Sequence record: OR352940.1
Source of the DNA: Escherichia phage AV110
Length of the DNA: 64,000 nt
Reading direction: 5' to 3' (one strand)
Positions 1 to 62,780 of this stretch are shown piece after piece (within the stretch, counting starts at the first letter, position 1; the number at the start of each line of letters is the position of its first letter). The notes under the pieces are model-generated. The model saw nothing but the letters and a program-made list of their open reading frames with translations. It searched no databases and was not told where the DNA came from. The position numbers were made by a program, and so were the translations under genes.

Positions 1-35
1 CACGCTCACGTTCGGCCTCTACTACGTTCTGAAGA

Positions 36-335
36 TTATGACTCATATCGTTCCTTATAACTATCAATATAGTCCTGTATGTCGAAAAACGACATTTCAT
101 ATTCTAGGGCGTTAAGAGCCCGTTCTTCAGTATAGTCAGAACCAAAGACGATAGTGATTTCACCGGGCTTCATGTGATTGAAATCGACACTAAAAGGAAT
201 ACGAGAACATACTTCGTCTGCCATATCTACGATAACACTACGACACACTTCTCTGTTAACCTGATAAAGCTCTGCAAGTTCTTCACAACGAATAACAAGT
301 TCAGTGGCAGGATTTTCTTTGATTTTAGTAAGCAT
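36..335 (-). CDS. hypothetical protein (99 aa)
   Basis: ORF at distal end of the motA-downstream minus-strand gene string; no recognisable motif. Confidence 0.45.
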   Translation of the reverse strand: MLTKIKENPATELVIRCEELAELYQVNREVCRSVIVDMADEVCSRIPFSVDFNHMKPGEITIVFGSDYTEERALNALEYEMSFFDIQDYIDSYKERYES

Positions 336-5028: not shown

Positions 5029-5229
5029 TTATTCGGCTATATCAGAACGTTCAAAAAGCTCTTCAACAGTTAAACATTCAGTGTCATCTTCAATAAAGAA
5101 TCGAGTCCAACACGTTGGGGCGATACAGTTATGAGTTTGTCCGGCGATAGAAGCTACACGAATAAGCTGCTGGCCGTTATTCAGAACAAATTTTTCACCA
5201 ATTTCAACATCTTTAAAAAGCTTAGCCAT
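5029..5229 (-). CDS. hypothetical protein (66 aa)
   Basis: ORF with GGAA RBS downstream of early promoter at 5258-5287. Confidence 0.45.
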   Translation of the reverse strand: MAKLFKDVEIGEKFVLNNGQQLIRVASIAGQTHNCIAPTCWTRFFIEDDTECLTVEELFERSDIAE

Positions 5230-5257
5230 TTTGTGTTCCTCATGTTTCAGTAGGACT

Positions 5258-16505: not shown

Positions 16506-17183
16506 TTATCGCTGTTTTACACTTAACGGGTCAGGATTCTCAGGGACATCTTCAAGGCCAAGCGCATAACGCTGAGCATATTTTAACATCAAAATATCTT
16601 TAGCACAATCATGAATACTATCATGGGCAACGAATCCTTTTAGCGTACCCATCGGTAATGGACACATACTTAATCCTCGTGTCAACGAGTAAGCTTCGAT
16701 TGCCGTACGAATATCGCGTTGAGCCCAGAATTTAACCGGTTCTAATTTATCAGTATCAATATCTGGTTCAAGAACACCTTCATCACGATAGAGGTCACGA
16801 ATCAAATCGACCAAGATTGGGAAGTCAAAGCTCATACCACGGCACCACATCTGTGATTTCCATTGGTCAACTTTATTATCTCGGCAATAGTCTAAAAAGA
16901 TTTTAATGCCTTCAAGCGTAGTGACATCATCTTCAGACGGAGCCAGGTTTTTACGCGCTTCAGCCGATTGTTCTTTCCACCATTTCATAGTGGATTTAGC
17001 GAAAACTCGCTTCCCTTTCTGAGAAGCTAAATTAAATTTAATTCGCTTACCTCGTTGAACAAGTTCTTCAAATGATTCAACAACTTCAGGGTCGGAATTA
17101 TATGCAATAACCGCAAGGTCAATAACAGCCGCTTTTGATGTATTGCCGAATGTTTCAAAATCTATAATAACATCAGTGCTCAT
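16506..17183 (-). CDS. dexA: exonuclease A (DexA), DnaQ-like 3'-5' exonuclease
   Basis: 225 aa; exo I motif VIIDFETFG near N-terminus; size and position as T4 dexA. Confidence 0.8.
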   Translation of the reverse strand: MSTDVIIDFETFGNTSKAAVIDLAVIAYNSDPEVVESFEELVQRGKRIKFNLASQKGKRVFAKSTMKWWKEQSAEARKNLAPSEDDVTTLEGIKIFLDYCRDNKVDQWKSQMWCRGMSFDFPILVDLIRDLYRDEGVLEPDIDTDKLEPVKFWAQRDIRTAIEAYSLTRGLSMCPLPMGTLKGFVAHDSIHDCAKDILMLKYAQRYALGLEDVPENPDPLSVKQR

Positions 17184-17192
17184 AATTTTCTC

Positions 17193-18506
17193 TCAAATAA
17201 AATGGACGTCAAACCGTCCACGAGTTGTGCCGACATACAATAACTGTTTAGCTAATTCTGAATCGGCATAATGGATACACGGTGTATAAACAAAGGCAGT
17301 GTCAACAGACATACCCTGGGCCTTATGGAAGGTTGATACAGGTAGTGCCTTCACCTTAGTGAACATACGTTTAGCATCCCAGAATTCGCTCCATGGGGCT
17401 TTACCACCTTTATTCCAGAATTTATATGTTTCTGCTGTCTTAGCCAAAAACAAATTGAATTTATAAAGCTCTTCTTCAGAAGAAATAACCTTTATATCTT
17501 CGCGGATGTATTCTTCATCATCCCCATATGTTTCTACTGTAAGATTCCAGTATCGTATCATATATTCGCCTGAAACACCACGTGCTTTAACGAATGTAGA
17601 CGTTTCTACAGCATCTCGAATACGAACGAATTGCCCGTTATTGAAAAGCATTTCGGTCATATTTTTACCATCTAGCTTATATGTCTTAGTAAATGGCTCT
17701 TGTAGAACAATGACTTCGTCTTTAATAAATGGTTTTTCTGTTTCAAGAAGTTTTCGGCGAATAATTGAATTTAACTTGTCCACCGACTTATTTGTGAATG
17801 CCATCATTCGATTTTCGAAAAGGTCTTCAGGAGTTTTAACGACGTTAAAATAGTTCATCATATACGATTTAAGGTCTGTATATCCATGAACACCGTGTCC
17901 ATCAACTACTTTATCGTAAATCCATTTGCCATTACGAATATCAGTCGCAACATCAATAATTGGTGCATTGCTACGTTTAACTTCTGTAAGGTTGCATTGC
18001 ACGAAGTCTTTGTGAGTGAAGAAAGGACTTAGATACGCAGTTGATTCGCCTGGGTCTACCGGACGAATCTGGCATCGGTCGCCGATTCCAATTACTGTAC
18101 ACCATTTAGGGATACTAGCTAACATTATTTTAAACAGAGAACGGTCGCACATTGACGCTTCATCAAATAACAGTACACGACACAAGGCTAAGTCGGGAAC
18201 CTTTTTCTGTTCAAACAATACGTTTTCTTCGTATGTAGTTGGGTTGATTTTAAGAATGCTATGAATAGTCGATGCTTCTTGACCCGCAAGTTTGCTTAGA
18301 ACCTTTTTAGCAGCATGTGTAGGGGCTGCTAAAATAATACCTGATTCTCCTGAAGAAATAAGAGCTTCAACAATAAATCTAGTAAGGGTTGTTTTACCTG
18401 TACCAGCCGGTCCATTAATAGTTACATGATGTTTCTTTTCTTTAATAGCTTCCATAACAACGTTGAAGGCGTTTTTCTGGCCTTCAGTCAAATCATCAAA
18501 TGTCAT
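17193..18506 (-). CDS. dda: Dda DNA helicase (SF1)
   Basis: 437 aa; Walker A GPAGTGKTT, helicase motifs; size and position as T4 dda (439 aa). Confidence 0.9.
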   Translation of the reverse strand: MTFDDLTEGQKNAFNVVMEAIKEKKHHVTINGPAGTGKTTLTRFIVEALISSGESGIILAAPTHAAKKVLSKLAGQEASTIHSILKINPTTYEENVLFEQKKVPDLALCRVLLFDEASMCDRSLFKIMLASIPKWCTVIGIGDRCQIRPVDPGESTAYLSPFFTHKDFVQCNLTEVKRSNAPIIDVATDIRNGKWIYDKVVDGHGVHGYTDLKSYMMNYFNVVKTPEDLFENRMMAFTNKSVDKLNSIIRRKLLETEKPFIKDEVIVLQEPFTKTYKLDGKNMTEMLFNNGQFVRIRDAVETSTFVKARGVSGEYMIRYWNLTVETYGDDEEYIREDIKVISSEEELYKFNLFLAKTAETYKFWNKGGKAPWSEFWDAKRMFTKVKALPVSTFHKAQGMSVDTAFVYTPCIHYADSELAKQLLYVGTTRGRFDVHFI

Positions 18507-22783: not shown

Positions 22784-23122
22784 TTAACTCCTTTGTTGTT
22801 TAATTACAGGTGTATTTATAATGAATTTCTTCGGGACAATAAAATATCCGAATTTAGCTAATATAACAACATCACCGTTAATTATTACCGGAGAATAATC
22901 ATCTGGAGTATTAAATTTCCAGTGGAGTCTAGTATTATATCCATCAGAGCCGAATGCTTTATTAGCCGGTCTCCCGGCTTTTTGCCATGCATAAAAATCA
23001 AGTTTCATTTGCAACCCAATCAACCATATGTAGATGGTCTGATAATTGACTAACATGCTGAAGCTGATTAGACAGGAGCTTACAAATAAGCTCACTGTTA
23101 TCATTTTTAAATAGTTGGTCAA
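22784..23122 (-). CDS. hypothetical protein, start uncertain
   Basis: N-terminal third looks non-genic; C-terminal part may be a short protein starting near 23008. Confidence 0.35.
   Translation of the reverse strand: MTNYLKMITVSLFVSSCLISFSMLVNYQTIYIWLIGLQMKLDFYAWQKAGRPANKAFGSDGYNTRLHWKFNTPDDYSPVIINGDVVILAKFGYFIVPKKFIINTPVIKQQRS
22813..22820 (-). promoter_or_regulatory. late promoter TATAAATA for soc
   Basis: Exact T4 late consensus on minus strand about 32 nt upstream of soc ATG; soc is a late capsid gene. Confidence 0.6.
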
Positions 23123-23170
23123 TACGTTTCTTATGAGCTTTCTTAAGCTGACGTTTATTTAAACAAGCCA

Positions 23171-23692
23171 TTAATAACCTCGGTCTTGACGAGCAAAGTT
23201 TTCAGCATTCTTCAGATAATACAGTTTAAAGATTTCTTCAGCAGAAAGACCCAGACCTTGGAACATGTTCAGAACGAAGTGCAGAATATCAATCATTTCG
23301 AATTTAATTTCGAGCTGGTCTTCAGGAGACAGTTCATCAATACGACGATTACGATATTCAGCATGTTGTGCTTTCCATGGCTTCCACACAGAGCTAGCGG
23401 CTTTTTCACCATTGCTCATACCACCAAGTGAAGTCAGCAGTTCACGGAATTCATCATCAATATAATCTTTCTGATTACGCAGCCAATCAACAACATCGCC
23501 TGCAGTGGCCAATTCATCAGGATGTTTGTTATGTTCAGGCTTGTCATTTGCCAGGCGAACCTGTAAAGATTTCTGCATATCAAGCATTACCTGCAGTGGG
23601 TCTTTATCTTCGTGAATCAGAGCATTAAAATAAGCTTCTTCCGCTTTATCAACACCAGAAATAAGTTGTGAACATTCGTTAAAGTGTGCCAT
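23171..23692 (-). CDS. 56: dCTP pyrophosphatase gp56 (MazG-like)
   Basis: 173 aa from MAHFNEC (ATG 23692, AGGA RBS); MazG-type helical NTP-PPase, size as T4 gp56; track start uses an upstream TTG. Confidence 0.85.
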   Translation of the reverse strand: MAHFNECSQLISGVDKAEEAYFNALIHEDKDPLQVMLDMQKSLQVRLANDKPEHNKHPDELATAGDVVDWLRNQKDYIDDEFRELLTSLGGMSNGEKAASSVWKPWKAQHAEYRNRRIDELSPEDQLEIKFEMIDILHFVLNMFQGLGLSAEEIFKLYYLKNAENFARQDRGY

Positions 23693-23780
23693 TATTTTTC
23701 CTTTCAATTCAGTATAAGAGAGTTAATTCTAACATTAATTTTATAAAGCGTAATAAATAATAGGTAACTAAGGAGATATT

Positions 23781-23978
23781 ATGTTTAAACTTCCATCGTT
23801 AATCAACGCTATTAAAGGCAATAAAAAGAAAACTGCTATCGCTGCAATAGTTGTAGGTGGCATTATTTCATGGAACTTCGGGATTGCACCATTGTTAGTT
23901 GCCCATGGTATTATAGTTCCTTCTGTTCCATTGGATACTGTAGTTGATTTGGCCTTTGCTATTATAGGGCTTGTTTAA
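23781..23978 (+). CDS. small membrane protein (65 aa), plus strand
   Basis: Strong RBS AAGGAGATATTATG; two hydrophobic segments; convergent with gene 61; one of very few credible plus-strand genes. Confidence 0.45.
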   Translation: MFKLPSLINAIKGNKKKTAIAAIVVGGIISWNFGIAPLLVAHGIIVPSVPLDTVVDLAFAIIGLV

Positions 23979-24997
23979 ATCTTCGAATAACGAGATAATC
24001 TCATTTTAGCATGCAACCCACTTGAAATATTCTGTTTCATATATTCTAAAATTTCTTGTGGTGTTGCATTTTCTTTCATTACCATATCATTCACATCCTT
24101 TGAACTCCATGGAGCTCTATCCCAGAACATGACACGTTCGCCTGCATCAACTAATCGCTTCATGCGAGCTATAGTATCCGGATGCCTAGGTTCATTATCC
24201 ATTACCCATACCCGACGTTCTTTAAATGGTACCACATCTAAATCTATCGAGCCGCCTGTAATAGCGATTGCATTGGGTATGAATAAACTATCAATAGGGC
24301 CTTCCATTACCCAGACGTCTCCTTCCTTAACACGTTCAACACCATAAATTTTTGTTGCAGACTCAAACGCTTTAATAGTGATATATTTCTGAGGAGCATC
24401 TTTACGAAGTGCACGTCCTTGGAATGACTCGGCCTTCCCATCTTTATTAAAAATAGGAATCACTAAACGTGGTTCGGGGATCTCTTTCTTATACGTACCA
24501 GGTTGAATCTTGTTGACCAATTTGGGCCATTCTAATGTGAACCATAATCTGTTCCACGATTCTTTAGGAATACATCTAGACTTAACATATTTCACAATAG
24601 GATGCTCTTCAGGCAACTTGTCCAGACGAGAACAAGACGGCAAAGAATTTATAGTCTTTTTCTCTGGCTCCGGCTTAGCTTCAGGAACCTTTTCAATCTT
24701 TGGTTCCATTCTAGCTTTTTCTTTACGAACTTCCATTAGATACTCGCGATAAAGCTCTTCATCATACTCTTTTAAGTATCCGGAAATTGTATTGTGGTAT
24801 TGACAGTTATAGCAATGCACATTACCAGGAGTACCGCCATAATACCAACCGCGGGCTTTCATTGCATCTGTCTGAGAGTCGCCACAAACTGGACAACGAA
24901 ACGTTAATTTAAATGTGCTTGAATTATTGATTTGTCTAAAACGAGGGAGGTGAGAAAACGCACGATAAGCAAATTCATTATCTATCCATTCAGCCAT
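23975..24997 (-). CDS. 61: DNA primase gp61
   Basis: 340 aa; WIDNEFAYRA...FRCPVCGDS zinc ribbon and TOPRIM-like core matching T4 gp61 as recalled. Confidence 0.9.
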   Translation of the reverse strand: MAEWIDNEFAYRAFSHLPRFRQINNSSTFKLTFRCPVCGDSQTDAMKARGWYYGGTPGNVHCYNCQYHNTISGYLKEYDEELYREYLMEVRKEKARMEPKIEKVPEAKPEPEKKTINSLPSCSRLDKLPEEHPIVKYVKSRCIPKESWNRLWFTLEWPKLVNKIQPGTYKKEIPEPRLVIPIFNKDGKAESFQGRALRKDAPQKYITIKAFESATKIYGVERVKEGDVWVMEGPIDSLFIPNAIAITGGSIDLDVVPFKERRVWVMDNEPRHPDTIARMKRLVDAGERVMFWDRAPWSSKDVNDMVMKENATPQEILEYMKQNISSGLHAKMRLSRYSKI

Positions 24998-25002
24998 AGT
25001 AT

Positions 25003-25022
25003 TCTCCAGAGGCCTTAAATTA
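25003..25022 (-). promoter_or_regulatory. RNA hairpin immediately upstream of gene 61 RBS
   Basis: GGCCUUA...UAAGGCC stem followed by CUGGAG and AUG of gene 61. Confidence 0.35.
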
Positions 25023-25036
25023 ATAAGGCCATCTTA

Positions 25037-25531
25037 TCACAACTTATTAATATTTACTTTAATTCGCTTTCTTTTCTTGGAAGGAATTTGTTCGGGACCT
25101 TTATTTACAATTGCACCTGTAGTAGTTCCTGATGCAATAGCTTGAGGATTGCCGTCTGAATCACCAGCAACCATATCCTCAAATAAAGGGAGTTCTTTAA
25201 ATATTTCTTTCTGTTGTTCTTCCGTAATGTTATAGCGTGAAGCTACAGCACTCCAGGCAGACATCATTGAGGCCATTCCATTAAGACCTGGAACAGTGCT
25301 CATCATTCGCTTCATTGAACGAACTGAAGCATGAAAAGGTGTATAAGCCGCTTTCTCTTCAGGAGTGGAAGGACGTTTAAGAACACTTCCACGTTCATCG
25401 ATGATTTTGGCTTCGTATGCTTTCCATTCGGTAAAAGGTTTTTGCATTAGTCGAATAAACTTATATGCATAAACAGAATCTATTGCAGTGTTAATAATAC
25501 CCATAGGTACCTCCTGAGTATATTTAATCAA
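25037..25531 (-). CDS. hypothetical protein (164 aa)
   Basis: ORF in position of T4 61.1; basic C-terminus KKRKRIK. Confidence 0.5.
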   Translation of the reverse strand: MIKYTQEVPMGIINTAIDSVYAYKFIRLMQKPFTEWKAYEAKIIDERGSVLKRPSTPEEKAAYTPFHASVRSMKRMMSTVPGLNGMASMMSAWSAVASRYNITEEQQKEIFKELPLFEDMVAGDSDGNPQAIASGTTTGAIVNKGPEQIPSKKRKRIKVNINKL

Positions 25532-26731: not shown

Positions 26732-26980
26732 TTATTCTTTTTCGCGAATAATAATTACTTGTTGAGGCTGCTGAGCAGATTTCTTTTCGGCAACGATAGA
26801 CCAAATTAAAGTTCCAATCCAACCAACCATCGTCCAGTTAAAGAGTAAAGATACAAAGAAGATTGCTGTTGTGCTTTTTGTGCCACGAATAAGTGCGATT
26901 ACCCAAGGCAACATGTAAATGATGATTGAACCAATACCTGCGATTAAAACTGCTACTGAACTAGCTACGAATAATTCCAT
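26732..26980 (-). CDS. small inner-membrane protein, superinfection-immunity (Imm)-like
   Basis: 82 aa, two TM segments; pattern YMLPWVIALIRG...VGWIGTLIWS resembles the superinfection-immunity family; own promoter. Confidence 0.5.
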   Translation of the reverse strand: MELFVASSVAVLIAGIGSIIIYMLPWVIALIRGTKSTTAIFFVSLLFNWTMVGWIGTLIWSIVAEKKSAQQPQQVIIIREKE

Positions 26981-32097: not shown

Positions 32098-32997
32098 TTA
32101 TTCCTCGATTACGACATCTTCATATTTAGGTATATTATACGGCGAAGAAATTAAAGCATTAAAGTAGATGAACTCACCAAGACCTGGATGGAATACTTCT
32201 TCAGGATTTTCGAAATATTGAATTTTCGGACGCCCTTTAAGAATTTGATAGTACTCTGTTTTAGTTGGTTTAAAAATTCGAATCAGCGCTTCTTCAGGAT
32301 ACTTATTTCTGTCGAAGCTATTATTTGGATCGGTTATATAAAGCGGTTGGCCTAATTGAATTGCACATTCAACCACTTGTTCAAAACGATAGCACGGGTC
32401 ACTAATTCGAAATGGATGAAAAATACCATCTAGATAAATAGGAGCCAAATCACCTACAAGACGCTGCATGATGGAAGGACGTATAACTTTCTGCGTTACG
32501 ATAATCTTATTACCATCTGCACCTGCGTTAACCAGCACTTCTTTTTGACGTTCATTCAACACAGTAGTTTGAAGTGAACGATTAACCGACAACATATCAG
32601 TTTTTAAGAATTCATCAATATAAAAACGTGGTTTATTAGGGTCTGCAGTGATATTGAAATTGAATTCCACATCAAAAGCGCCGTCATATCCAGTGATATC
32701 TGTGATTAGAAAATCACAGTCATAATAAGCAATTAATGAATCAACCACAAATCCATTTTCAGACCAGAAATATTTACGAGTGTTATACGCGTTATCTTTA
32801 TACCATAATGGAACAAACTTAAATTCTGGAAAAAGACGTTCGCATTCTTTAATATCAGATGCATTACGTGGATATGTAATCACATCACCCGGATTAGCAC
32901 GGTGCAAATGAAGTTGGAAGTTGCCATCCTTAAGGATAGCATACTGTCCAGTTTCATAAGACCGCATACTCAAGATTGGTACGCGGAAAATAGCCAT
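32098..32997 (-). CDS. protein at beta-glucosyltransferase position (299 aa), possible glycosyltransferase
   Basis: Occupies the slot between 42 and uvsX where T4 has beta-gt (351 aa); no confident motif. Confidence 0.4.
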   Translation of the reverse strand: MAIFRVPILSMRSYETGQYAILKDGNFQLHLHRANPGDVITYPRNASDIKECERLFPEFKFVPLWYKDNAYNTRKYFWSENGFVVDSLIAYYDCDFLITDITGYDGAFDVEFNFNITADPNKPRFYIDEFLKTDMLSVNRSLQTTVLNERQKEVLVNAGADGNKIIVTQKVIRPSIMQRLVGDLAPIYLDGIFHPFRISDPCYRFEQVVECAIQLGQPLYITDPNNSFDRNKYPEEALIRIFKPTKTEYYQILKGRPKIQYFENPEEVFHPGLGEFIYFNALISSPYNIPKYEDVVIEE

Positions 32998-52942: not shown

Positions 52943-54756
52943 TGGTGTTTAACCCTATGCATGATTTCTTTATTTTTACCGAGATTAAATCCGCGTTCGT
53001 TCGGATTTCCCAAATAACCACAAGTTCTTCTTATTGTGTTCATCTTTTTAGGATCAGTTTCTCCGCAAACTGAACAAACAAATCCATTTTCAGTAGGAGT
53101 CATTTCATGAGTACTTCCGCATGTAAAACATTTATCTACTGGCATATTAACACCAAAATAATCTAAATGTTGTGCAGCATAATCCCATACAGCCTCAAGT
53201 CCCTTTAAATTGTTTTTCATATCTGGAAGTTCAACATAAGAAATGTGACCGCCTGTCGCAATGAAATGATACGGCGCTTCACGAGAAATCTTTTCAAACG
53301 GAGTAATATTTTCTTCTACTGAAACATGGAAACTATTAGTGTACCAGCCTTTATCTGTAACATCTTTTACACTTCCATATTTTTCTGTGTCGAGTTTACA
53401 AAAGCGATAACAAAGGTTTTCAGCAGGAGTAGAATATAAACTAAAAGCAAATCCGGTTCTTTCAGTCCACTGTTTAAGATGAGCATTCATTTTAGTTAAA
53501 ATTTCTTGTCCAATATCACGACCGACAAGAATATTCAATTCGTGAATACCAATGTATCCCAAAGACACTGAACTTCTACCGTTTTTAAATAACTCAATTA
53601 TATCGTCATCAGGTTTAAGACGAACCCCAAATGCACCTTCTTGGTAAAGAATAGGAGCAACAGTCGCTTTAACTCCTTTTAAGGAACTAATTCTACACAT
53701 CAAAGCTTCAAAACACAGGTCCATTCGTTCGTTAAATAGCTCAACAAATTTCTGTTCATTGAACTGTGTTCCAATATAAGAATCTAACGCAATACGAGGA
53801 AGATTCAGTGTTACAACACCAAGATTATTACGTCCATCAAGAATTTCATTACCAGTCGAATCTTTCCATACGCTCAAGAAACTACGGCAACCCATCGGAG
53901 AAACAGGAACTGAAGAACCGGTAATAGCTTTATTATTCTTAACCGAAATAATGTCAGGATACATTCTTTTGCTTGCACATTCTAACGCAAGTTGTTTAAT
54001 ATCATAGTTCGGATCGTCTTTATAAAGATTAACACCTTCTTCAACGAACATAACAAGCTTAGGGAAAATAGGAGTTATTCCATCACGACCAAGACCTTTA
54101 ATGCGGTTTTTAAGAATTGCCTTCTGAATCATTCGTTCAGTCCAATCGGTTCCCGTACCAAATGTAATTGTTACAAAAGGAGTTTGTCCGTTTGAACTAA
54201 AGAGAGTATTTACTTCATATTCATAAGCTTGGAATGCGTCATAGACATCTTTTTCTGTTTTAGATTGAGCATAATTCAGAATGTCTGGTATTTGCCATTT
54301 TTCTGCATCTTCAACATGTTTAGCGTATGTACGTTTAACATAAGGAGAAAGAACTTTATCGACATTCGCAAATGTAGTTCCGCCATACTGATGTGAAGCA
54401 ACCTGTGCAGTAATTTGTGCCATAATTGCAGTAGCAACGCCAATAGATTTAGGCGTTTCAATTTGAGCATTGCCTAATTTAAATCCATTCTCAAGCATCC
54501 CCTTTAAATCGACTAAACAGCAATTGGTAAACGGAAGAGCAGGAGAATAATCAATATCATGCATGTGAATGATTCCGCTTTCATGCGCATTCATAATAAA
54601 AGACGGGACCATATTTTTGGCAATGTGCTTAGACACAATACCAGCCATAAGGTCCCGTTGAGTTGGAAAAACACGAGAATCTTTATTAGCATTCTCGTTT
54701 AAAAGGTCTTTATTAGTTTTATGAATTAATCCTTCAATTTCTTTTTCAATTTTCAT
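52939..54756 (-). CDS. nrdD: anaerobic ribonucleotide reductase NrdD (glycyl radical enzyme)
   Basis: 605 aa; C-terminal glycyl-radical motif RTCGYLG and Zn-ribbon CFTCGSTHE...CSVCG; uninterrupted (no intron). Confidence 0.9.
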   Translation of the reverse strand: MKIEKEIEGLIHKTNKDLLNENANKDSRVFPTQRDLMAGIVSKHIAKNMVPSFIMNAHESGIIHMHDIDYSPALPFTNCCLVDLKGMLENGFKLGNAQIETPKSIGVATAIMAQITAQVASHQYGGTTFANVDKVLSPYVKRTYAKHVEDAEKWQIPDILNYAQSKTEKDVYDAFQAYEYEVNTLFSSNGQTPFVTITFGTGTDWTERMIQKAILKNRIKGLGRDGITPIFPKLVMFVEEGVNLYKDDPNYDIKQLALECASKRMYPDIISVKNNKAITGSSVPVSPMGCRSFLSVWKDSTGNEILDGRNNLGVVTLNLPRIALDSYIGTQFNEQKFVELFNERMDLCFEALMCRISSLKGVKATVAPILYQEGAFGVRLKPDDDIIELFKNGRSSVSLGYIGIHELNILVGRDIGQEILTKMNAHLKQWTERTGFAFSLYSTPAENLCYRFCKLDTEKYGSVKDVTDKGWYTNSFHVSVEENITPFEKISREAPYHFIATGGHISYVELPDMKNNLKGLEAVWDYAAQHLDYFGVNMPVDKCFTCGSTHEMTPTENGFVCSVCGETDPKKMNTIRRTCGYLGNPNERGFNLGKNKEIMHRVKHQ

Positions 54757-55226
54757 TTTAAACTCTTTCTAAGCTGCTTTTTGAATGAAGCTATTAATTG
54801 TGTTTTAGTATCTGATTCATTATATTCAAATCCTCTTTGAAGCATCTCGGTCATCATTTCCTCTTTACCTAGTCTTGAGAACTCTTTAGTTTTGTCTGGA
54901 ACAAAATTAGGATGGATATTATTATCAGAATAATCTTGTTTCAAATAAGCGAGAAGAGCTTCAAGCCATTCTAGGTAGTCGACATCACGGCCTTTAAGAC
55001 CAGAACGGTTGAACTTATGCTTCATTTGACCTTCTGCTGCGTTGCACAGAGAACAGAGTAATCCACGAACTCTACCGGCTTTTGGCCCGTTTAATTCATG
55101 GTCGTGGTCAAGATGGTTACCTTGAACATCAGGGTCTAATTCACGGTGGCAAATAGGACACTTACCGTTCTGTGCATCATAAAATTTTTGTTTTTCTTCT
55201 TTATATTTTGCGCCTGATAATAACAT
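54753..55226 (-). CDS. 49: endonuclease VII gp49 (Holliday junction resolvase)
   Basis: 157 aa; CPICHREL...HLDHDHELNGPKAG...CSLCNAAEG zinc/HNH-like core matching T4 endo VII; identical C-terminal tail as recalled. Confidence 0.9.
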   Translation of the reverse strand: MLLSGAKYKEEKQKFYDAQNGKCPICHRELDPDVQGNHLDHDHELNGPKAGRVRGLLCSLCNAAEGQMKHKFNRSGLKGRDVDYLEWLEALLAYLKQDYSDNNIHPNFVPDKTKEFSRLGKEEMMTEMLQRGFEYNESDTKTQLIASFKKQLRKSLK

Positions 55227-55231
55227 GATAA

Positions 55232-55256
55232 ACCCTTACCTTAAATAGATAAGGGT
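55232..55256 (-). promoter_or_regulatory. RNA hairpin occluding gene 49 ribosome-binding site
   Basis: 7-bp stem ACCCUUA/UAAGGGU with 11-nt loop; 3' arm contains the AAGGG Shine-Dalgarno 6 nt before the gene 49 AUG. Confidence 0.4.
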
Positions 55257-55261
55257 ATTTA

Positions 55262-55675
55262 TTAACTTAAACGTCTTTCTAAATATTCAATGTATTCTGC
55301 GGCTGCTTGCATCAGGTTACCTTCATAGCCGTCGTTATTTTCTTGTCCGGCTAATTTAGCTAAAGCATAAGAAATACGTTCACCTTCGAATTCGCCAAGT
55401 CCACCATCACAAACTACTTGGTCAATTTCTTCGAGTTCATCTATTGAATGGGATTCCCAGAAGCACCAAAGAGAAGTATCACGGTCATAGATGCAAAGTT
55501 TCTCACCTGTGTTCAACAACACTTCGATAATGCCATGGTCGCCATAACCATCTTCGGTAGTAGTACCAATTACCTTGATGATCGTATCTTTCTTTAATTC
55601 AGGAAACTTGACTTGTAGTTCTTCATCTTCTTTAACAATCTTGAACCATTTACCGCGAGTTTCAGAAATATTCAT
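55262..55675 (-). CDS. hypothetical acidic protein (about 137 aa; pin position)
   Basis: Start taken at MNISETRG; track ORF N-terminus overlaps next ORF; sits where T4 has pin. Confidence 0.4.
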   Translation of the reverse strand: MNISETRGKWFKIVKEDEELQVKFPELKKDTIIKVIGTTTEDGYGDHGIIEVLLNTGEKLCIYDRDTSLWCFWESHSIDELEEIDQVVCDGGLGEFEGERISYALAKLAGQENNDGYEGNLMQAAAEYIEYLERRLS

Positions 55676-61477: not shown

Positions 61478-61759
61478 TTACTTATCGCACTTAGCAACAT
61501 AATTAGGCATATCACAGAATACAGAGCGAGTAACTACTCGGCCCTTTGTCCATGCTTCAGTCGCTTGTCCGGCCGTGCTATTAATATAGCTTGATTTAAT
61601 GTTCTCAATACCTTGAGAATGTGATGCATTTACCGAACCATTGGAAGGCCCAGAAGACTGGTTACCACCAGCTCCTGCACTACCGCTGGCTGCACCCGTG
61701 GTAGCACCAACAGAGAATGTCATCATTACTGCGAATAAACCAATTGCTAATTTTTTCAT
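61478..61759 (-). CDS. secreted Gly/Ser-rich small protein (93 aa)
   Basis: Signal peptide MKKLAIGLFAVMMTFSVGA; low-complexity G/S/A/N region; late promoter TATAAATA about 33 nt upstream; hairpin terminator downstream. Confidence 0.5.
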   Translation of the reverse strand: MKKLAIGLFAVMMTFSVGATTGAASGSAGAGGNQSSGPSNGSVNASHSQGIENIKSSYINSTAGQATEAWTKGRVVTRSVFCDMPNYVAKCDK

Positions 61760-61790
61760 ATTTACCTCAAGTTAAGGGTTATTTATCTAC

Positions 61791-62780
61791 TTATTTATAG
61801 TAAGAATTATGATTTTCGAGATAGACTTGCTCAAGGAAATCATCCCAGAAACTCATATCTACTTTTTGTTGCATACCATTCTTGGCAGCTTGTTCTGACG
61901 CATGTTCAACTTGGTCAACGATATCTTCTAGGAATTCTTGTACAGTTTTAAACGTATGTTTACCAAGCTTAACATCGAGAATAAATGGAGCATCCTGAAG
62001 TGGGTAAACCAGGTCGCCGGTTTTGTAAATTTCTAATAGTTGAAGTCCACCACGACATGCATGACTCAATGCTTTCCAGTCAATACCTTCGTTAGCTTCT
62101 GCCTTACGAGCACGTTCACCGTAGTTCTCTTCCAGTTTAACCAGGATGGCATTGAACTCTTTATTGGTTAACGTATCTTGGAATTTACGGTCTAACAGAT
62201 TATAGAATGTTTGCTTACCTGTTTTCTCGTTTTCGGTTTCAACCCACGAAGCAAATTCACCTACAGGCAGAACATTCTTCATATGTGATAAACGAATTAC
62301 TGCACCATTATCAAAGTATTGTCCCCATTCATTAGAACGTTTAAGGGCTTGACGAAGAACAGCCAGTCGAGAACCCTTGACACCGTATTTAGAAGCTTGC
62401 TTACGGACATACCCTAAATAAGATTTCATGTTAGTGGTATAGAAGCGAGACCTGTTATCTTGAATATACTTCCATACATCAGGCAAATCAGATTTAACTA
62501 CTAGACTTTGCGGAGTGTGAAGCATATCTAATGCGACGGTTTCACCATCCGCAGCTAGTTTAAAGAAATATTTGAGACTATACAATTCATGGTCTACGTC
62601 GTCTTTTGTGTTCTTAGAAGATGTGTTATTCGTGTTCTTGCTCATGTGTTCTTTAACGTTACCGGTCAAAATATCACGAGCATGAGGGATATAAATTTCT
62701 TTAAAATCTACGTCAGATTCAGGAGTAGACGTTCCATAAAGGTGGCTACCAAAGTAGCCTTTCATAATTGTTTTCATCAT
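61791..62780 (-). CDS. Pol-beta-superfamily nucleotidyltransferase-fold protein (329 aa)
   Basis: N-terminal GS-x10-D-x-D signature GYFGSHLYGTSTPESDVDF. Confidence 0.55.
   Translation of the reverse strand: MMKTIMKGYFGSHLYGTSTPESDVDFKEIYIPHARDILTGNVKEHMSKNTNNTSSKNTKDDVDHELYSLKYFFKLAADGETVALDMLHTPQSLVVKSDLPDVWKYIQDNRSRFYTTNMKSYLGYVRKQASKYGVKGSRLAVLRQALKRSNEWGQYFDNGAVIRLSHMKNVLPVGEFASWVETENEKTGKQTFYNLLDRKFQDTLTNKEFNAILVKLEENYGERARKAEANEGIDWKALSHACRGGLQLLEIYKTGDLVYPLQDAPFILDVKLGKHTFKTVQEFLEDIVDQVEHASEQAAKNGMQQKVDMSFWDDFLEQVYLENHNSYYK
61792..61799 (-). promoter_or_regulatory. late promoter TATAAATA
   Basis: Exact late consensus about 33 nt upstream of the secreted-protein gene 61478..61759. Confidence 0.5.

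Follow-up and report, generated by a model that had tools for sequence, protein, structure and literature searches.

A conserved plus-strand gene for a predicted small membrane protein between genes 56 and 61 of T4-like phages

Introduction

Late promoters of phage T4 carry the sequence TATAAATA at positions -13 to -6, which is recognized by gp55. Among the T4 late promoters that have been listed, 32 of 50 are perfect, and the commonest variant has A at position -13 (9/50); in RB69 and its relatives the T at this position is poorly conserved. Variants of the T4 late promoter function both in vitro and in vivo, and late transcripts of either polarity are found. Promoters of this gp55 type also precede late genes that lie in early regions of the T4 genome, such as soc and gene 49. 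Middle promoters carry a MotA box (consensus wwwTGCTTtA) located 12 ± 1 bp from a -10 element. One of these, P56/69, was mapped upstream of gene 56 in T4, with its start site at 16813. The T4 record places the replication origin oriA at 16763 and gives the gene 56 transcript as its primer RNA. A review cites some evidence that the oriA primer depends on MotA and describes the origin as more active later in infection; the same review locates oriA outside the skew switches.

The interval between genes 56 and 61 of RB69 contains RB69ORF029w, for which Nolan et al. (2006) predicted a single transmembrane (TM) segment at residues 21-41; no late promoter is listed at this position in RB69 by the same authors. 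Literature searches on RB69ORF029w, T4 ribosome profiling, unannotated T4 small ORFs, and the oriA/dam region returned nothing on this ORF. Genes for two other small proteins of the membrane or periplasm, Imm and Sp of T4, lie a few kb or less from gene 61.

Here, we analyze the ortholog of RB69ORF029w in Escherichia phage AV110 (OR352940.1), hereafter the small ORF. The window is the whole stretch of 64,000 nucleotides that was analyzed. We describe a Tevenvirinae-wide family, unannotated copies in T4 and Dhakavirus JS10, a conserved late-promoter motif, and a duplication in Gaprivervirus, which are what the present work adds to a gene that was already known: it carries the name RB69ORF029w from the RB69 genome onward, and hundreds of records list it as a hypothetical protein.

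Results

Layout of the locus

The window belongs to an RB69-like Mosigvirus, with 99.2% identity to Shigella phage Shf125875 and about 96% to RB69 over the 1 kb around the small ORF. A preliminary description of this DNA had reported a plus-strand ORF for a small hydrophobic protein, with a strong ribosome-binding site and convergent with the primase gene. This ORF is real, and its position and those of the other features are listed in Table 1. The TAA stop codons of the small ORF and of gene 61 overlap at 23975-23978, and an 88-bp gap separates the small ORF from the start codon of gene 56 (23690-23692, minus strand). The coordinate given earlier, 23693, is the first base of this gap and not the start of the ORF. 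A strong Shine-Dalgarno sequence (AGGAGG, AAGGAG, or GGAGG) precedes the small ORF in all eight lineages compared. GC skew turns positive over 23700-23999 alone, consistent with coding on the other strand there.

Table 1. Features of the window and of the small-ORF protein discussed in the text (nucleotide positions in the window; protein positions as residues)
Feature	Position	Strand	Remarks
Small ORF (RB69ORF029w ortholog, PHROG 2024)	23781..23978	+	ATG start, 65 aa, TAA stop
Shine-Dalgarno sequence AAGGAG	23770..23775	+	5-nt spacer to ATG
AATAAATA, predicted late-promoter (gp55) -10 element, A(-13) variant	23752..23759	+	ends 21 nt before ATG
MotA-box-like TTACGCTTTA (consensus wwwTGCTTtA)	23744..23753	-	putative gene 56 middle promoter
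-10 hexamer TAGAAT	23726..23731	-	12 nt downstream of MotA box
Gene 56 (dCTPase/dUTPase)	23171..23692	-	divergent from small ORF
Gene 61 (DNA primase)	23975..24997	-	convergent with small ORF
ATAAATA site	22813-22820	-	precedes soc
ATAAATA site	55255-55263	-	precedes 157-aa ORF at 54753-55226
ATAAATA sites, two adjacent	61780-61799	-	precede 93-aa signal-peptide ORF at 61478-61759
ATAAATA site	32434-32440	+	inside minus-strand gene, no ORF downstream
Protein: basic N-terminal segment			KGNKKK
Protein: TM helix	~18-41		conserved W31-N32-F33, P37
Protein: segment after TM helix			conserved (A)HG turn, P47, D52/D56, short hydrophobic C-terminal helix

Placement of the small ORF in the 56/oriA/dam/61 neighborhood of T4, also proposed earlier, is correct by synteny, and the 88-bp gap holds a homolog of P56/69 (see below). 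The dam gene had been described as missing, and tblastn with T4 Dam over the whole 64-kb window indeed gave a best E value of only 0.72. The small ORF had further been called an antisense small protein. It does lie on the opposite strand, but it is antisense only to read-through early or middle transcripts, and its overlap with the coding sequence of gene 61 is limited to 4 nt. Two minus-strand ORFs of 112 and 57 aa are found between soc and gene 56 (22784-23171); relatives label them variously as "soc.2", "virion structural protein", or hypothetical, and T4 has the homing endonuclease gene segF there. The phage record T4_ev240 is likewise without dam and has the 56/small ORF/61 layout seen in the window.

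Identity and distribution of the family

The small-ORF protein differs from RB69ORF029w (RB69p029, NP_861719) by one residue (I61V), at the same position and on the same strand, and the protein is 100% identical in many Mosigvirus records. The small ORF and RB69ORF029w, present in Mosigvirus, Tequatrovirus, and Gaprivervirus as a "hypothetical protein", are thus one and the same gene. Residues 1-65 align with positions 1-65 of the profile of PHROG 2024 (function unknown; E 1.9e-27). Database names are "hypothetical protein" and occasionally "putative (trans)membrane protein".

By tblastn, the small ORF matched 692 phage records, 685 of them over at least 80% of the query. Conservation in related phages had been left to be checked by the preliminary description; the ORF is conserved across the Tevenvirinae. 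All eight sampled lineages, including Tequatrovirus, Gaprivervirus, and Dhakavirus, have a homolog in the same slot, on the plus strand and tail-to-tail with gene 61. Further tblastn matches to distant members came from T4-like phages of Klebsiella, Citrobacter, Salmonella, Raoultella, Enterobacter, and Edwardsiella, and from Shigella phage SP18. The most distant members (P0076-P0079; 60-68 aa) lie in divergent T4-like contigs on the plus strand, downstream of gene 56; they either meet gene 61 tail-to-tail or have a small inserted gene beside gene 61. Some homologs in this slot are recognizable at only about 25-30% identity. No copy next to gene 61 was found in any of the five Straboviridae checked outside the Tevenvirinae (Slopekvirus Matisse, Pseudotevenvirus RB16, Biquartavirus SW69-9, Bragavirus Pm5461, and Hadassahvirus Melin), which mostly leave no room for it; genes 61 and 56 are directly adjacent in Matisse and RB16. 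By HMM search, the 64-kb window contains no second copy of the family.

The T4 ortholog (66 aa, 54% identity) lies on the plus strand of the dam-61 gap (L003 3239-3439, corresponding to NC_000866 ~17738-17938), with GATAAATA and AAGGAGG upstream. This gap (NC_000866 17626-17934) is empty in the NC_000866.4 and AF158101.6 annotations, and the ortholog is called in Pyrodigal-based T4 records. Only read-archive assemblies contained the exact T4 sequence, for which no protein accession was listed. Similarly, the RefSeq record of Dhakavirus JS10 (NC_012741) contains an unannotated copy in the 61-56 gap (L028 2741-2532, minus in the locus; HMM E 4e-24), preceded by AATAAATA and AGGAGG, and the stop codons of this copy and of gene 61 overlap. 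In Gaprivervirus TH41, two tandem paralogs were identified (L005 1501-1698 and 1707-1907), and CJ20 matches over the first copy. The first paralog is T4/RB69-like. The second, which overlaps the stop codon of gene 61, is more like the members from Dhakavirus and from more distant lineages. This suggests two subfamilies and possible hetero-oligomers.

Sequence-profile searches of Pfam, NCBIfam, PADLOC, and the PDB gave no informative match for the small-ORF protein, a profile search of 5.8 billion proteins returned the small-ORF family alone, and Foldseek against viral models found family members only. An exhaustive HMMER search of 1.84 billion cluster representatives retrieved eight proteins, all of the same family and including the distant 60-68 aa members; there is therefore no remote link to any characterized family. 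A match of one distant member to AaeX (E 0.013), far below the cutoff, was dismissed.

Evidence for a coding function

The pattern of substitutions indicates that the small ORF is a real protein-coding gene under purifying selection in its own frame. Pairwise dN/dS values within Mosigvirus, Tequatrovirus, and Gaprivervirus ranged from 0.05 to 0.47 in nearly all pairs; two low-divergence pairs gave values of about 0.6, which are based on very few substitutions. In the three genera, the variable columns at codon positions 1/2/3 numbered 6/0/13, 6/2/11, and 12/2/11. Fifteen residues, including W31, N32, F33, P37, G43, P47, and D56, are invariant among 20 diverse members. Frameshifted copies are present in two records, T4_ev240 (L034 ~1140-1160, within an A-run) and ERS-1 (L007 ~1640-1662). 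Either sequencing errors or dispensability of the gene could account for them.

Predicted structure and topology

The AlphaFold2 model (20-sequence alignment; pLDDT 84) consists of a short helix (residues 3-11), a 27-residue helix (15-41), a proline-rich loop (42-50), and a 12-residue helix (51-62) that carries D52 and D56. Family members have five or six Lys/Arg residues before the long helix and none or one after it, which by the positive-inside rule places the N-terminus in the cytoplasm. The C-terminal 23 residues contain no Lys/Arg and two Asp and end in AFAIIGLV. A single membrane pass with the N-terminus inside is the most likely topology on this model. The two TM segments proposed in the preliminary description are doubtful: the protein is hydrophobic with at least one predicted TM helix, but the second helix, where a two-TM hairpin would call for about 18 residues or more in each arm, has only 12, contains two Asp, and follows a proline-rich loop. 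The hydropathy profile (19-residue window), with two peaks and values above 1.2 right to the C-terminus, would still allow a helical hairpin, which is the weaker reading. The invariant Trp-Asn within the long helix suggests helix-helix contacts.

A predicted late promoter

The small ORF is probably a late gene, with its transcription start predicted from the sequence near 23765, about 6 nt past AATAAATA, as in T4-type late promoters, which have no -35 element. NATAAATA, a variant of TATAAATA, was found 14-33 nt before the ATG in 8/8 lineages. Each lineage has exactly one ATAAATA in this interval, and the surrounding upstream sequence is not alignable. A scan of the sequence upstream of the small ORF detected no sigma-70-like promoter on the plus strand. 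Across the eight lineages the base at -13 is A, G, or C and, unlike in the TATAAATA of T4 late genes, never the consensus T, so the promoter of the small ORF may be weak.

The window contains ATAAATA about five times less often than expected, with six sites against 28 ± 5, and five of the six are located just upstream of ORF starts (Table 1). The 157-aa ORF preceded by one of them is presumably the gene 49 (endonuclease VII) homolog. The remaining site, at 32434 on the plus strand, might be an orphan or an antisense late promoter. The small ORF resembles the T4 late genes of early regions in having an ATAAATA core 14-33 nt before its Shine-Dalgarno sequence and ATG. It differs in orientation: soc and the 157-aa ORF lie on the minus strand of the window like their neighbors, whereas the small ORF lies on the strand opposite to its neighbors. 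The simplest explanation of this orientation would be late expression from a gp55-type promoter belonging to the small ORF.

A putative middle promoter of gene 56

On the minus strand of the 88-bp gap, we identified a MotA-box-like TTACGCTTTA followed by TAGAAT. By motif and position, this pair is the predicted homolog of T4 P56/69, the presumed oriA primer promoter, which it resembles in the MotA box, the 12-nt spacer, the -10 element, and a leader of about 27 nt before gene 56. The arrangement of MotA box, 12 nt, and -10 element upstream of gene 56 is also found in T4, TH41, and JS10. Together, this minus-strand MotA box and the plus-strand late -10 element span 23744-23759 of the window, back to back and with an overlap of 2 nt; the two elements likewise overlap or abut in TH41 and JS10. 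In T4, dam (780 bp) lies between P56/69 and the small ORF with its late promoter. The likeness to oriA concerns the neighboring minus-strand promoter and not the small ORF, and the separation by dam means that the small ORF is not tied to the origin. GC skew revealed no inflection.

The 3' end of the small ORF

A consensus scan of 23000-25200 found no intrinsic terminator, and folding detected no significant structure 3' of the small ORF in either the window (z = -0.27) or T4 (z = -0.10). With no terminator after the ORF, a late transcript would in both cases continue antisense into gene 61. Terminator-type hairpins do directly follow the ORF in two other lineages, L023 (9-bp stem, UUCG loop, and T6 run; z = -3.3) and L018 (8-bp GC-rich stem; z = -2.1), so read-through is not a conserved feature. 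The L023 hairpin (5199-5230) is a near-perfect intrinsic terminator, CTCTAGAGC-UUCG-GCTCTAGAG followed by T6; it includes the stop codon of the small ORF and falls within the 3' end of an inserted minus-strand gene (124 aa) that separates the small ORF from gene 61. No Rfam covariance model matched either strand of 23500-24200 with E <= 1.

Discussion

We consider it likely that the small ORF is a genuine gene, the ortholog of RB69ORF029w, encoding a 65-residue inner-membrane protein that is made late from its own gp55-type promoter and has, as our guess, a role at the cell envelope. Late in infection, the plus strand would be transcribed from AATAAATA to give a leader of about 16 nt with a strong Shine-Dalgarno site. 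Timing would keep the two strands apart: early and middle transcripts of gene 61 would cross the ORF on its antisense strand into gene 56, which would also be driven by its own MotA-dependent promoter, back to back with the late promoter, and the plus strand would come into use after the switch to late transcription. In the protein, the lysine-rich N-terminus would remain cytoplasmic, with the helix at ~18-41 spanning the membrane, and the last ~24 residues, comprising the proline-rich turn and the short acidic and hydrophobic helix, would lie at the periplasmic face, on or dipping into the outer leaflet. The invariant Trp-Asn and the conserved Pro, Gly, and acidic residues may serve for self-pairing or for pairing with another membrane protein.

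Several other explanations were weighed against this one. The ORF could have arisen by chance in an AT-rich intergenic spacer and been propagated by automatic gene callers, as its shortness, the lack of a match in Pfam or other curated families, and its omission from the curated T4 and JS10 reference annotations would allow. We rejected this reading, which we hold to be extremely unlikely, on the evidence of selection and synteny: dN/dS is far under 1 in nearly all pairs from three genera, homologs of ~25-30% identity keep the same slot, the reading frame, Shine-Dalgarno sequence, and promoter motif are kept in eight lineages, and the gene was duplicated in Gaprivervirus. Selection at the amino acid level, with a Shine-Dalgarno sequence in all lineages, also argues that the protein is the selected product and not a regulatory RNA, that is, a late plus-strand transcript which, antisense to gene 61, would lower primase or collide with early transcription and whose translation would be incidental. 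The overlapping stop codons with no terminator 3' of the ORF in the window or T4 fit such an RNA, as does the recurrence of the 4-nt tail-to-tail overlap in T4, RB69, JS10, TH41, L022, L023, and L026, but two lineages (L023 and L018) have terminator-type hairpins at this place, and we regard the proposal as very improbable. It is also improbable, if less sharply so, that the DNA itself is what matters, with the 88-bp divergent promoter region acting as an RB69-type oriA and the ORF as a passenger. Primer R-loops would then form from the transcript of the gene 56 middle promoter and possibly from the late plus-strand transcript too. The MotA box and -10 element are placed with respect to gene 56 as they are in T4 P56/69, and the T4 record (oriA at 16763, primed by the gene 56 transcript) and the review cited above (MotA-dependent primer, greater activity later in infection) speak for an origin here. 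Such an origin is compatible with a coding function and does not exclude it, but it cannot explain the codon-level selection on the ORF or the conserved ribosome-binding site; moreover, the back-to-back arrangement is not required, since dam intervenes in T4, and there is no skew inflection.

With respect to function, a lysis protein was also considered, namely a second holin or pinholin, or an antiholin-like partner of holin T, that would be made late and form or gate membrane lesions. The product is small, hydrophobic, and probably late, its conserved TM Asn would suit helix-helix association, and one T4-type member is named "Holin" in UniProt. This name is a single automatic label among hundreds of "hypothetical protein" entries. 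The likeness to phage holins and antiholins (T and RI of T4; class II holins such as S21) extends to small size, membrane insertion, and probable late synthesis, but there is no sequence or profile similarity, and the small-ORF protein is predicted to have one TM helix and a short periplasmic helix, where holins and antiholins have two or three TM segments. A canonical holin was rejected on two grounds. Holins typically end in a highly charged, basic and hydrophilic domain, whereas the C-terminal part of this protein is hydrophobic and acidic. Nor does the gene lie beside endolysin or spanin genes in any lineage examined, its neighbors being the replication and nucleotide genes 56 and 61. Holin T, RI, RIII, and spanins are already present in T-even phages, and we think a lysis protein of this kind unlikely. 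Imm and Sp also differ from the small ORF in being early genes on the minus strand. No sequence similarity of the small-ORF protein to Imm or Sp was detected, and the HMM search that covered the whole window, with imm at 26732-26980, found one family member. For the small-ORF gene, our best guess remains a late envelope role, for example in modulating lysis timing or lysis inhibition, or in late membrane protection, although we have little confidence in any such specific role.

For AV110 itself the finding matters little, the gene being already annotated as a hypothetical protein. The best-studied phage, T4, seems to possess a conserved and selected gene with late-promoter and ribosome-binding signals that is absent from its reference annotation, and array, proteomic, and knock-down studies based on that annotation would not have covered it. 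It is conceivable, though we would not expect it, that the protein is an overlooked late inner-membrane factor of the whole Tevenvirinae with a real phenotype, for example a component of lysis timing or inhibition or of late membrane protection; such a factor would have escaped notice for decades on account of the missing entry in the canonical T4 annotation. In a variant of this reading, the back-to-back late/middle promoter module would contribute to oriA activity in the late phase. The family marks the subfamily Tevenvirinae, and its fixed position implies a retained function. The compact pair of late and middle promoters would be a case in T-even phages of one short spacer serving two temporal classes of genes on opposite strands.
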